From an uncultured Alphaproteobacteria bacterium (GTDB lineage: Bacteria > Pseudomonadota > Alphaproteobacteria > Micavibrionales > UBA1664), in assembly GCA_943789475.1 (NCBI GenBank), contig CALSUG010000006.1, positions 41,834 to 105,833 on the forward strand: a stretch of DNA of 64,000 nt, read 5' to 3'. Made by a program: the position numbers and the translations under genes. Shown piece by piece: positions 7,092 to 11,599 of this stretch (its first letter is position 1; each line of letters opens with the position of its first letter). Below the pieces are notes generated by a model, which worked only from the letters and a program-made list of their open reading frames with translations, made no database searches and was not told where the DNA came from.

Positions 7092-7742
7092 ATGAAAGAA
7101 TTTTTACAAACACGCAGATCAACCAAAGTGAAAATGATGAGCGAACCTGGCCCATCACAAGATGAACTGAACGAGATTTTAAAAATCGCTGCACGTGTTC
7201 CTGATCATGGAAAATTATCCCCCTTTTATTTTATTGTTTTTCAAGGTGATGTTCGCAAATAATTTAGTCAACATTTACGCAATGTATGGGCGGATGAGCA
7301 TCCTGATGCCACCGAAGATTTCTTAAAAAATGAAGAAAATAGATTTATGCAGGCACCATTGGTTGTCGCAGTCATATCACGTATTCGCGATGCAAAAATT
7401 CCTGCATGGGAACAAATATTAACCGCTGGCGTATGTTGCCACAATTTATGCCTCGCGGCCAATGCACATGGGTATGGCACGAATTGGTTAACACAGTGGT
7501 ATTACAACCATCCTGAGGTTCGCAAAATTCTTAATCTTGAAAATGGACGCGACAACGTCGCGGGCTTTATCTATATCGGCACAGAAACCGAAAAACAAGA
7601 TGATCGCAATAGACCAGATATTTCCTTCATCACAAATCATTGGACTTCCCATAACTCAAGTGATAAAAAAGGTGATTGCTATAATAAAGATGGATTAGGG
7701 AGTCCGCACCATGGGTTTACAATTACACAATTCTCGACCTAA
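7092..7742 (+). pseudogene. YdjA-like nitroreductase with in-frame TAA
   Basis: MKEFLQTRRS...AARVPDHGKL is in frame with ORF 7347..7742 but interrupted by TAA at 7260-7262. Confidence 0.75.
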
Positions 7743-8007: not shown

Positions 8008-8639
8008 AGCACCTTATCCTTAAATCCGCAAAGGTCAGAAATGATACAGTTTCCGCAATCTGGTTTACGTGCCTTGCACATATAACGCCCATGAAGAATA
8101 AGCCAGTGATGCGCGTAATATAAAAAACTCCTTTGGAATTTTTTTCTCTAACTTATGCTCAACTTCATCAGGGGTCTTCCCCTTGGCCATGCCTGTCCGA
8201 TTCCCCACACGGAACAGATGTGTATCAACGGCAATTGTTGGATAACCAAACGCAACATTCAAAACAACATTCGCGGTTTTACGCCCTACCCCTGGCAAAG
8301 CCATTAATTCTTCGCGTGTTTGAGGAACGTTCGACCCGTGATTATCAATCAATAACTTTGAAAGCTTAAACACATTGGCGGCCTTAGCCTTATAAAGCCC
8401 TATCGTTTTAATATACTCACGAATGACATCTTCGCCCAATTCAACCATTTTTTCTGGTGTATCCGCGATCGGAAATAAATGCTGGGTCGCCTTATTCACA
8501 CCAATATCCGTGGCCTGTGCCGACAACACAACCGCCACTAACAATGTAAAAATCATTCGTGTATTCAAGGTCGCTTTTCGGTTGGGGATTATCCGCACGA
8601 AGGCGTGTAAACAATTCAGTTATTTTTTTCTTTATTCAT
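8004..8639 (-). CDS. nth: endonuclease III (three frameshifts in this assembly)
   Basis: LSAQATD, LPGVGRKTANV and VDTH motifs. Removing one base at each of 8623-8629, 8548-8552 and 8122-8127 restores MNKEKITELF... and the 4Fe-4S motif CKARKPDCGNCIISDLC. Confidence 0.92.
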
Positions 8640-9094: not shown

Positions 9095-9238
9095 GAGATT
9101 ACTATATAATAAAAAGAGCAATTCTATGTAAAATTATTTTAGTATAATCATGCGTCCGTAATCATCATAGGCCTATTAACATCTTAATGCTAATCTTACT
9201 CGTTGTTTGTAATCAAACTTAGCAAAGGGAATAACATT

Positions 9239-9550
9239 ATGACAGGCAAAACATCAAGGTTTTTACTTACAACATTTACACTTGGTGTATTAGTTATTGC
9301 ACCCGCAATGACTACACATGCCGAAAATGCATATGATTGCGATGCACACGCGGCACATATTGACCATGAAATTGGTGTAGAAAAAGCACTAGATGCTTAC
9401 CATGTCCTTCACGGTGATAAAACCGATGTTCATCATATTATTGATGAACTAAAAAAAACTCATGCAGATGTCGAACATGAGTTGGAAGAGTACGTGGCAA
9501 AAGGGTGTTCTAATGAAGAATTAATCGCCCACGCAAATGACGCGTATTAG
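9239..9550 (+). CDS. small secreted His-rich protein
   Basis: AAGGGA RBS, signal peptide, 10 His and 2 Cys in a ~75 aa mature region. Confidence 0.65.
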   Translation: MTGKTSRFLLTTFTLGVLVIAPAMTTHAENAYDCDAHAAHIDHEIGVEKALDAYHVLHGDKTDVHHIIDELKKTHADVEHELEEYVAKGCSNEELIAHANDAY

Positions 9551-9578: not shown

Positions 9579-9611
9579 CCCCATAGCGAAAAAAATCACT
9601 ATGGGGTTTTT
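9579..9611. terminator. intrinsic terminator between convergent genes
   Basis: CCCCATAGCGA...TCACTATGGGG stem followed by TTTTT. Confidence 0.75.
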
Positions 9612-9613
9612 CT

Positions 9614-11599
9614 TTATTTATAAAGGGAAAATTTACCAGTGATATCTTTTAAATCACTCGTTTTTCCAAATAGTGCCAAAGCAATATAATTCAAATCATC
9701 TGTTTGTTTTTCAGATGTTGCTTTTAATTGTTCTTCTGAACCGCCAATAGTCATCGTGTCCGTGAAATCAACAAATGATATGCCTGCTTGTTTTGCCTTT
9801 TCACGTGCCGTCAAAATTTGATTTGAATTTTTAGCCTTCACCGCAATAACAGGATAGTGCGAAATTGATGAATGAACTTCACCAGATCCATCCTTGTAAT
9901 CAATAAAACAGAAATCTTCACCTTGCGCTTCTTTTCCGACGAGTCCAGCCATTGAATGTCCTAATGCATTCATAACACGACCAATGCTTTCTTCTTTACC
10001 ATTCACAACAACGATAAAGCGATATTCATTTTCATCCTTATTTTTATGTGGCTGATCTGCATCCACATTCACTTCTTGTGAAACCACCTTCGGCGCAGGA
10101 TTTGTTTTTAACGGTTTTAACGTTGGGAAACAAATAACATCACGGATATTTGTTGAATCGGTCAATAACATCGTCAAACGATCAATCCCAATTCCGTACC
10201 CACCATTTGGCGGAAGGCCAACTTTCAACGCAGTCACGTAATCGTCATCAACCATTTGCGCCTCTTCATCCCCCGCATCACGCGCAGCGGCTTGCAGATC
10301 AAATGAAGCCTGTTGAATGTCTGGATCATTTTGTTCCGTAAAGGCATTGGCAATTTCCCAACCGTTACAGAACGATTCAAAACGTTCAGTTAAACGCGTA
10401 TCTTCTTTATCCAATTTCGCCAATGGTGAAATATCGTATGGTAGGTGCGTGATATGTGTTGGTTGAATCAATGTATGTTCAACATGCTCATCAAACATTT
10501 CGGCCACGATTTCACCCCACTTCATCGTGTCGGTGACTTCACATCCTTTTTCTAATGCTTTCGCACGTAAAGCGTCCGCATCAAAATCAAGAGGATTAAT
10601 ACCAGTGCGTTTTTCAATTGATCCGCACATTGTTTCACGTGGCCATGGCCCTGCAAAATCAAGTTCATGTTCACCATAAGTTGTCACCGTCGCACCATCA
10701 TTAAGATGTTTCACAAGATCAGATAATAGCGTTTCAACAAATTCCATCACATGGGTGTAATCCCACCACAACACATTCCCTTCCATCATTGTGAATTCAG
10801 GATTATGTTTTGGTGACACACCTTCGTTGCGGAAATAACGACCAATTTCATAAACATGTTCGGTCATTCCACCAACCAACAAACGTTTGAGGTACAACTC
10901 CGCCGCAACTTTCAAATAAAATTCACTATCTAGTGCATTATGTTGCGTAATAAATGGTTTTGCCGATGCACCACCCATGATTGGTTGAAGGATTGGGTTT
11001 TCAACCTCAACCGCGCCAAGTTTACGCATATATTCACGCAAAAATGCGGTAATTTCAGAACGTTTTAACAATGTCTTTGCACTGTCATCATTCATGATCA
11101 AATCAAGATAACGTTGACGATAACGCGTTTCGATGTCTGTCAAACCATGGTGTTTTTCTGGCAATGGTTCAAGAGATTTTGTAACTAATTCAACTTCGCT
11201 TGCACGCACGGATAATTCACCACGTGGTGTACGGCGCATTGTTCCTTTTGCCCCAACAATATCACCAAGATCAAGATATTGAAGGTTCGCCAGTTGATCT
11301 TCGTTCATTGTTTGTTTGTGACAAAAAACCTGAATACGTCCGGATGTATCCTTCACATCCAAAAACATTCCATTGTTACGCATCGCCATCACGCGGCCGG
11401 CAATTGCAACTTCATCTGTTGTTTCTTCACCATCGGGAAGGTCGGCATATTTCGCTTGCAAAGCCCCAGCATCATGCGTTTTGGGATAATTATACGCATA
11501 TGGATTTTTACCCGCGGCCTTGTATGCATCGCGTTTTGCGCGGCGCGCTTCGCGTGGGTCGGTTAATCCTTCTGTCTTTACTTGTGCGTCTGCCATCAT
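9614..11599 (-). CDS. lysS: class II lysine--tRNA ligase with C-terminal DUF2000-like extension
   Basis: RYRQRYLDLI, YFRNEG, HNPEFTMME, GIGIDRL and FPTLKP motifs, followed by a ~165 aa extension. Confidence 0.95.
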   Translation of the reverse strand: MMADAQVKTEGLTDPREARRAKRDAYKAAGKNPYAYNYPKTHDAGALQAKYADLPDGEETTDEVAIAGRVMAMRNNGMFLDVKDTSGRIQVFCHKQTMNEDQLANLQYLDLGDIVGAKGTMRRTPRGELSVRASEVELVTKSLEPLPEKHHGLTDIETRYRQRYLDLIMNDDSAKTLLKRSEITAFLREYMRKLGAVEVENPILQPIMGGASAKPFITQHNALDSEFYLKVAAELYLKRLLVGGMTEHVYEIGRYFRNEGVSPKHNPEFTMMEGNVLWWDYTHVMEFVETLLSDLVKHLNDGATVTTYGEHELDFAGPWPRETMCGSIEKRTGINPLDFDADALRAKALEKGCEVTDTMKWGEIVAEMFDEHVEHTLIQPTHITHLPYDISPLAKLDKEDTRLTERFESFCNGWEIANAFTEQNDPDIQQASFDLQAAARDAGDEEAQMVDDDYVTALKVGLPPNGGYGIGIDRLTMLLTDSTNIRDVICFPTLKPLKTNPAPKVVSQEVNVDADQPHKNKDENEYRFIVVVNGKEESIGRVMNALGHSMAGLVGKEAQGEDFCFIDYKDGSGEVHSSISHYPVIAVKAKNSNQILTAREKAKQAGISFVDFTDTMTIGGSEEQLKATSEKQTDDLNYIALALFGKTSDLKDITGKFSLYK

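Follow-up and report, generated by a model that had tools for sequence, protein, structure and literature searches.

The window analysed here is a 64,000-nucleotide stretch of contig CALSUG010000006.1 (positions 41,834 to 105,833 of the forward strand; assembly GCA_943789475.1) from an uncultured alphaproteobacterium of the order Micavibrionales. It encodes a lysyl-tRNA synthetase (LysRS) whose reading frame continues into a C-terminal domain of the family DUF2000 (PF09391). The fused gene, lysS-DUF2000, is the cell's single housekeeping LysRS, with a flexible linker of ~30 residues and the DUF2000 domain tethered behind it. From comparative sequence data, we lean towards a reading in which DUF2000 hydrolyses, or at any rate binds, the acyl ester that tRNA carries at its 3' end, and would thus act as a module of aminoacyl-tRNA quality control. 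We favour the tRNA acyl end because the predicted fold belongs to the Pth2 (peptidyl-tRNA hydrolase 2) superfamily, because fusion to LysRS is recurrent, and because free-standing DUF2000 genes are paired in apparent operons with YbaK-family genes, an AlaX-like gene and ileS. Together, the fusion, the pairing with editing genes and the Pth2 fold turn a family without a function into an assayable hypothesis on the acyl end of tRNA.

The gene was a single open reading frame (ORF) on the reverse strand, 9614..11599, with 661 codons, an ATG start and a TAA stop at 9614-9616. A preliminary description of this DNA had read the frame as continuing past FPTLKP, the usual LysRS end, and the ORF list bore this out with the same text; the range that it had singled out, 9614-10130, covers the linker, the DUF2000 domain and the stop codon. 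Scores for TIGR00499 (lysS_bact; 559.2 bits over residues 13-497, cut-off 427.6) and NF001756 (608 bits against 468) place the protein among class II LysRS. It consists of an OB-fold anticodon-binding domain (residues 64-139, 11183..11410, reverse strand; PF01336, tRNA_anti-codon, 55.6 bits), a class II catalytic core (residues 156-494, 10118..11134, reverse strand; PF00152, tRNA-synt_2, 262 bits), a variable, disordered linker (residues 499-525, 10025..10105, reverse strand) with AAAAA runs at 10105-10109 and 10041-10045, and the DUF2000 domain (residues 527-661, 9617..10021, reverse strand). The last of these matched PF09391 with 95.8 bits (cut-off 25; E 2.6e-27) over profile positions 2-133 of 133, which agrees with the family that the preliminary description had recognised by eye. 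The segment between FPTLKP and DUF2000 matched no family in the Pfam and NCBIfam scan, and the Pfam scan gave no match to PF04073, PF07973 or PF02580, which puts the protein outside the known editing families. The core residues of LysRS were invariant across 47 fused homologues.

The fused frame could in principle be an assembly artefact, in which a one-base error in an A run joined lysS to a separate downstream DUF2000 gene. As the preliminary description had cautioned, removal of one A from the run at 10105-10109 does produce a TGA stop, at codon 510, beside a GTG/ATG. Two nearby genes are also broken in the same assembly, so assembly errors or decay do happen in this region, though not in lysS-DUF2000, and short DUF2000 proteins that start within the linker, such as P0203, occur in databases. 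Against this, all 43 database matches to the C-terminal 182 residues carried PF00152 and PF09391 in one chain (615-677 residues, 43-92% identity), with linkers of unrelated sequence. The whole fused frame was present in 13 of 15 related loci from species-representative genomes, metagenome-assembled genomes titled Micavibrio, Alphaproteobacteria or Pseudobdellovibrionaceae in NCBI; the remaining two end at a contig edge and still read from LysRS into DUF2000. An RNA-library contig that came from a different sample (X3, record 3) covered 9918-10298, including the linker, with 0 differences and 0 gaps; we take this contig as evidence on the sequence and not as proof of transcription.

Properties of the linker point the same way. 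It was 21-39 residues long (median 32) in 47 aligned fused proteins, and mean pairwise identity within 41 Micavibrio-type proteins was 19.5% in the linker, compared with 65.6% in the LysRS core and 59.4% in the DUF2000 domain. In the full-length AlphaFold model (predicted local distance difference test [pLDDT] 84.5, predicted template-modelling score [pTM] 0.68), residues 493-514 had pLDDT below 50 between two confident domains, as expected for a true tether, and the model thus suggests that the DUF2000 domain is tethered to LysRS. On the strength of the 43 fused homologues, the 13 whole loci, the RNA-library contig and the low-pLDDT linker, we hold the fused frame to be real and no frameshift artefact; the artefact explanation is, as far as sequence data allow, already refuted. 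Two database entries have other layouts. P0203 has 154 residues and starts inside the linker, and P0205, of 227 residues and encoded on a 65-kb contig, retains just the end of LysRS, followed by the linker and DUF2000. These are either split or truncated forms, or artefacts of gene calling or frameshifting.

Fold and conserved residues of the DUF2000 domain

The isolated domain was modelled with AlphaFold2 from 70 family members (pLDDT 95.8, pTM 0.89). Compared with Atu0240 (2GAX), an Agrobacterium tumefaciens DUF2000 protein of solved structure, the model gave a Foldseek E of 3.6e-10 and template-modelling scores of 0.80/0.83, and a second aligner gave Z 17.6 and a root-mean-square deviation of 2.1 Å over 134 of 135 residues. 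Atu0240 also shares with the window's domain a hidden Markov model match far over the cut-off and the conserved residues of the family, although it has F in place of H548 in the profile alignment. Pth2 structures (1Q7S [Bit1/PTRH2], 1XTY, 2ZV3, 1RLK, 3ERJ and 1WN2) were matched with Foldseek E of 9e-6 to 2e-4. These six crystal Pth2 entries aligned over 105-112 residues with Z 13.9-15.1, compared with Z 4.5 for the first unrelated chain, so that the Pth2 fold named in the preliminary description was recovered. Judged from these models, DUF2000 is a distinct family inside the Pth2-like fold. The profile of the 70-member family, searched against the PDB, matched 2GAX alone (E 1.5e-14). The window's domain is ~25 residues longer than Pth2 and differs from it by a beta-hairpin insertion (domain residues 46-61) and an additional helix.

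Sequence likeness to Pth2 is partial. PDB alignments show the Pth2 motifs GK..AAQ..H and DAGxT, which we take to carry the reported catalytic Lys and Asp of Sulfolobus solfataricus Pth2. The Pth2 catalytic residues are not named in passages of PMC4929431 and PMC11202043. In an hhalign comparison of the DUF2000 family with a Pth2-like alignment, at a probability of 1.6%, the beta1-loop-helix1 elements fell in the same register, with G540-R/K541 on G-K and the conserved H548 on the His of GK..AAQ..H. That Pth2-like alignment held four sequences, as PF01981 was found in just 2 of 301 Pseudomonadota genomes. R541 or K541 and H548 were each conserved in 98% of fused forms. By eye, the C-terminal ITGKFSLY of the window's domain resembles ITGxLKL of Pth2. 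Several free-standing DUF2000 proteins scored near or above the PF01981 cut-off of 23 bits (L079, 25.4; L074, 23.6; L076, 23.4; L075, 22.4). Since three of them pass it, the Pfam DUF2000 and PTH2 families overlap in sequence space.

Conservation within DUF2000 differed between the family at large and its LysRS-attached members. N533, N544, A545, H548, G552, Y568, S580, P583, F612, M616, Q624, F644, G645, T654, S658 and L659 were conserved in free and fused forms alike, and the polar residues common to both were N533, N544, H548, Y568, S580, Q624, T654 and S658. Even at ~35% overall identity between free and fused proteins, N544, H548, S580, Q624, T654 and S658 were 85-100% conserved. The LysRS-attached subfamily additionally fixes K535, R/K541, D570, H576, H581, K588 and K656 (98% each), together with K590 (92%) and D611 (93%). 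Compared with six distant fused proteins, the window's protein was 48.4% identical in the domain and 40.6% in the LysRS core, and purifying selection on the DUF2000 domain is shown at the level of sequence comparison. Searches of PADLOC and PHROGs with five DUF2000 proteins gave 0 matches, and a protein atlas search with DUF2000 returned DUF2000 clusters only.

Distribution, history and gene neighbourhoods of DUF2000

Most members of DUF2000 stand alone. Within the alphaproteobacterial order of the window, the domain was present in 5 of the 14 other genomes of the same family (f1), whereas none of the 26 genomes from other families of the order had it. A link to a predatory or episymbiotic lifestyle was considered and dropped as unsupported. 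Across the class, 55 of 401 sampled Alphaproteobacteria carried DUF2000, and LysRS-sized frames were confined to the window's genome and three genomes of family f109, whose LysRS cores are 43-44% identical to that of the window. Beyond the class, NCBI names one fused protein from a Candidatus Dojkabacteria bacterium (a lineage of the candidate phyla radiation) as its lysine--tRNA ligase. DUF2000 is a small family, with 358 clusters matching at E <=1e-3 in a library of 1.84 billion representatives, mostly as free proteins of ~140 residues, and this free form accounted for 134 of 208 proteins matching the family profile. We surveyed DUF2000 architectures, as the preliminary description had proposed, among proteins scanned from the best 150 representatives (of 50%-identity clusters), where LysRS was the sole recurring fusion partner.

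In quick IQ-TREE analyses of the LysRS core (29 and then 32 rows), the f1 cores, fused or plain, formed one clade (Shimodaira-Hasegawa-like approximate likelihood ratio support 97-99). Within it, the plain 502-residue LysRS of two genomes (G008 and G012) stood beside the fused protein of a third (G010; support 93), inside the fused clade (support 99). For the DUF2000 tree, 208 profile matches were reduced to 189 domains covering at least 115 positions and to 152 rows at 72% identity. The Micavibrio-type domains formed one clade (support 99) that was sister to other fused domains (support 92), the Dojkabacteria domain being close to the sister group, and the f109-type domain sat apart on a long branch. 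Although the fused label changes two times on the unconstrained tree, we do not claim a repeated independent origin of the fusion, as the approximately unbiased test did not reject a tree in which all 14 fused rows group together (p 0.754), and the constrained tree had the higher likelihood. The set for that test had 68 rows, comprising 12 of 27 fused rows, two f109 rows and every second free row, after removal of seven long-branch or fragment rows.

A complementary phyletic pattern was rejected: neither Pth1, present in 14 of 15 f1 genomes with fused or plain LysRS alike, nor DTD explains which genomes carry the domain. None of the order's 41 genomes, the host (G000) included, had a DTD (PF02580) match, and 31 of the 41 are at least 90% complete; a control search with PF02580 was positive in 8 of 14 control genomes, and not in Caulobacter. 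Four DUF2000 proteins of 217-245 residues (P0049, P0050, P0064 and P0084), which are among the nearest free relatives of the fused domain, have at the C terminus an acidic tail of 70-100 residues that resembles a coiled coil and has no Pfam match.

Gene neighbourhoods of free-standing DUF2000 provided evidence of a different kind. We inspected two sets of loci: the first held 30 loci with 1.5-kb flanks (the best-scoring matches in the class, mostly from large genomes), and the second 14 loci with 3.5-kb flanks (lower-scoring matches in the class, mostly from genomes of 1-2 Mb). Three of the 14 loci in the second set, from three GTDB families, had a YbaK-family gene (PF04073, 85-90 bits) directly upstream on the same strand. 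DUF2000 begins 24 nt behind it in L068 and 1 nt after its stop in L073, and the two genes overlap by ATGA in L077; a Shine-Dalgarno-like GGAG precedes DUF2000 in each. A fourth locus (L075) had an AlaX-like editing gene (NF040865, E 1.8e-42) upstream within ~25 nt, and a fifth (L079) had ileS 206 bp upstream on the same strand. Elsewhere in this set, def lay 9 nt downstream of DUF2000 (L066), in L072 a GNAT gene came after DUF2000, with tig and clpP beyond it, and in L078 DUF2000 followed a desaturase/GntB-like gene. The other 6 of 14 loci had no related neighbours, and the remaining flanking genes varied between loci. In the first set, where counts are lower bounds owing to crude ORF picking in G+C-rich loci, a GlnRS/GluRS-type gene lay ~900 bp upstream in 2 of 30 loci, both from one genus.

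These editing-gene neighbourhoods are new evidence from the present analysis and, without recourse to the fusion, support a link of DUF2000 to tRNA quality control. YbaK/ProXp/INS (PF04073) and AlaX/tRNA_SAD (PF07973) proteins have the role that we propose for DUF2000, namely hydrolysis of mischarged tRNA in trans or as a synthetase domain, yet they are unrelated to it in fold and sequence. The DUF2000 proteins of these loci group in one clade (support 98), next to the one with the LysRS-attached forms (support 97). The loci are therefore kin and not fully independent samples.

Other neighbours and partners of DUF2000 were metabolic. In L078 (3501-5240; genome G234), an FA_desaturase-type gene precedes DUF2000, and P0073 has the same type of gene fused to DUF2000; this type is weakly like the guanitoxin L-arginine gamma-hydroxylase GntB (E 7.7e-12, far below the cut-off). 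In L075, a GntC/VioD-like pyridoxal phosphate (PLP) enzyme is encoded 2.5 kb away. DUF2000 may be linked to pathways of non-protein basic amino acids.

Readings of the domain's function

Under the reading that we favour, the domain would work on the tRNA that the synthetase already holds. LysRS would grip tRNA-Lys by its anticodon and acceptor stem, and the tethered DUF2000 domain would reach the 3' end of the tRNA and take off an aberrant acyl group. The likeliest target would be a non-cognate or non-protein amino acid wrongly transferred by LysRS, and an N-blocked or peptidyl-lysyl group would be a less likely one. The cleaned tRNA could then stay in place for recharging. In this scheme we infer tRNA binding, hydrolysis, the substrate and action in cis. 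We prefer proofreading over recycling of peptidyl-tRNA since YbaK and AlaX clear mischarged tRNAs with a free amine and since Pth1 is retained in 14 of 15 f1 genomes.

Proofreading after transfer would be a new activity for this enzyme. To our knowledge, LysRS is among the synthetases without a known hydrolytic editing domain, none having been described on it, and is regarded as proofreading before transfer only. According to the abstract of PMC5370406, class II LysRS needs no separate domain to edit homocysteine, homoserine and ornithine, and such editing leaves room for a post-transfer module. The LysRS-DUF2000 architecture is visible in domain databases, but the variant is undescribed in the literature that we searched, and NCBI and JGI label the fused proteins plainly as lysine--tRNA ligase. 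A full-text search, including work on synthetase domain architectures, found no report of LysRS fused to PTH2, and passages of the AARS Online paper (PMC11580382) mention no such LysRS domain.

A bolder form of this reading, which we hold tentatively and with less confidence than the general one, is that DUF2000 is an unrecognised family of aminoacyl-tRNA deacylases derived from the Pth2 fold and provides, on LysRS, the first dedicated post-transfer editing domain. In that case the domain would guard tRNA-Lys from basic or non-protein amino-acid analogues, and the rare fusions to amino-acid hydroxylases or PLP enzymes would mark producers of analogues that protect their own translation. If true, DUF2000 would join YbaK/INS, AlaX/ThrRS-N2, DTD and CP1 as a new proofreading family, and the view of lysine-codon fidelity in small-genome bacteria, such as the Micavibrio-like group, would change.

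Several results weigh against a role at the tRNA acyl end. At the level of sequence, the window's domain scored 14.1 bits with PF01981 (cut-off 23; E 0.06), below Pth2 membership, and the Pfam scan of the window protein accordingly listed no PF01981 match at E <=0.01. The hhalign comparison with Pth2 was not significant, and DAGxT is not conserved as such; it has no clear counterpart in the domain, although D611 (conserved in 93%) or D614 (49%) could match its Asp. The full-length pTM predicts no fixed docking of the domain on the LysRS core. The domain is also mildly acidic, with an isoelectric point of 5.4 in the window and a median of 5.8 over 61 fused domains, 2% of which lie above 7.5. 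This is unlike a self-sufficient, free-standing tRNA binder such as Pth2, but it would suit a module for which the synthetase or a partner holds the tRNA. The nesting of plain LysRS among fused forms means that the domain was lost at least once within a genus and is thus non-essential. As Pth1 is present in 14 of 15 f1 genomes, the domain is no Pth1 replacement and general peptidyl-tRNA recycling is already covered.

Genomic context and literature add to these points. Single representatives were fused to FA_desaturase, a Cys/Met PLP enzyme, a 2OG-Fe oxygenase (PF10014) or an aldehyde dehydrogenase fragment, and in L078 a desaturase/GntB-like gene lies directly upstream of DUF2000. In the first set of loci, with its lower-bound counts, DUF2000 adjoined an AraC-family regulator in 8 of 30 loci and a MarR regulator in 2 of 30, and an editing-family neighbour was found in 0 of 30. 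The link between DUF2000 and tRNA quality control drawn by the preliminary description is supported by the second set (a YbaK-family or AlaX-like gene upstream in 4 of 14 loci, ileS in 1 of 14), and its interpretation as a whole is borne out in part. A full-text literature search found no paper on the function of DUF2000, PF09391, Atu0240, 2GAX or IPR018988. A small-molecule role stays in contention through the AraC contexts, the single metabolic fusions, the failed Pth2 model and the loss of the domain in close relatives.

One alternative to proofreading is the recycle-and-recharge scheme of the preliminary description, in which the domain is a hydrolase of peptidyl-tRNA (N-blocked aminoacyl-tRNA) like Pth2 and frees drop-off tRNA-Lys on the very enzyme that recharges it. 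The Pth2 fold suits it, as do the position of one free DUF2000 gene directly before def and of another near tig. The genome also has a single tRNA-Lys(UUU) gene, among 33 tRNA genes, for the 5.9% of codons that specify Lys, three quarters of them AAA, and the growth defect of Escherichia coli pth(ts) reportedly stems from starvation for Lys-tRNA-Lys. However, the host and nearly all genomes of its family keep Pth1, whether LysRS is fused or plain; YbaK and AlaX, the partners of free DUF2000, act on mischarged tRNA with a free amine and not on peptidyl-tRNA; and PF01981 membership and a recognisable DAGxT are both lacking. We regard this scheme as unlikely.

Equally unlikely, in our estimate, is that DUF2000 binds or hydrolyses an amino acid, its ester or an adenylate analogue, and acts on LysRS as a sensor, a regulator or a metabolite-clearing domain. 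The metabolic fusions and the desaturase/GntB-like gene upstream in L078 are consistent with such a role, AraC and MarR regulators are the usual setting of inducible small-molecule functions, the surface charge is acidic, and the solved member, Atu0240, has no function assigned. Nevertheless, each metabolic fusion was one 50%-identity representative among the best 150, whereas LysRS fusions were several, and the Pth2-superfamily fold and the operon pairing of free DUF2000 with YbaK-family genes, AlaX-like genes and ileS speak for tRNA. It may equally be that the metabolic partners belong to makers of amino-acid analogues, in which tRNA proofreading would be needed. Should the tRNA reading fail, the metabolic fusions and AraC contexts would point to a small-molecule role, which would also be new.

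Two further possibilities fared worse. The domain could be a non-catalytic appendage, a degenerate Pth2 fold used as a handle for the tRNA 3' end or for a protein, for example to pass Lys-tRNA on or to attach to another factor. The failed Pth2 model and the dispensability of the domain in close relatives would agree with this, but the tightly conserved polar set (N544, H548, S580, Q624, T654 and S658) looks like an active site or ligand pocket and not a generic surface, and the domain is acidic; we consider the idea improbable. Still less credible is a channelling transferase that passes the lysyl group of fresh Lys-tRNA-Lys to an acceptor other than water. LysX offers a precedent for it as a class II LysRS with a second domain acting on Lys-tRNA-Lys, NF002821 (LysX) was among the NCBIfam matches, and the fold could grip the aminoacyl-CCA end. 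Yet the window's enzyme is the only LysRS of its genome and must mainly feed translation, its neighbours (uvrB, a broken nitroreductase gene, a broken nth and a bactofilin gene) include none related to an acceptor, and free DUF2000 genes pair with deacylases, not transferases. The NF002821 match itself covered the LysRS half only (profile positions 613-1100) and, at 450 bits against a cut-off of 742, fell short of LysX membership. In LysX an MprF membrane domain stands at the N terminus, and the enzyme supplements a separate housekeeping LysS, whereas the domain added in the window is C-terminal, soluble and predicted to be Pth2-like.

Host genome and surroundings of the gene

The host genome (1.97 Mb in 9 contigs, 97% complete, 39.9% G+C) gave one LysRS-level match in a six-frame search, the window gene; class I LysRS was not searched for. 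Two weaker LysRS matches (71.8 and 33.5 bits) belong to one 618-residue frame of another class II synthetase. The window gene was also the one DUF2000 match in the whole genome. A canonical Pth1 gene is present, and one YbaK-family gene (PF04073) lies elsewhere in the genome.

Around lysS-DUF2000 we found uvrB, the broken nitroreductase gene, the frameshifted nth, two small ORFs that belong to no family and the bactofilin gene. This neighbourhood says nothing about the function of the extra domain. The nitroreductase-family gene (7092-7742, forward strand) has an in-frame TAA at 7260-7262 with the frame open on either side, and is either a pseudogene or an assembly error. In the endonuclease III gene nth (8065-8598, reverse strand), a frameshift near 8130-8150 leaves the HhH-GPD part in one frame and the C-terminal Fe-S motif (CX6CX2CX5C) in another. 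Between lysS-DUF2000 and a convergent gene at 9203-9550 (forward strand), an inverted repeat at 9579-9611, CCCCATAG / CTATGGGG, has 8-bp arms and a 12-nt loop and is followed by TTTTT. Our terminator scan was limited to loops of at most 8 nt, and this repeat was read directly from the sequence; it looks like a terminator.

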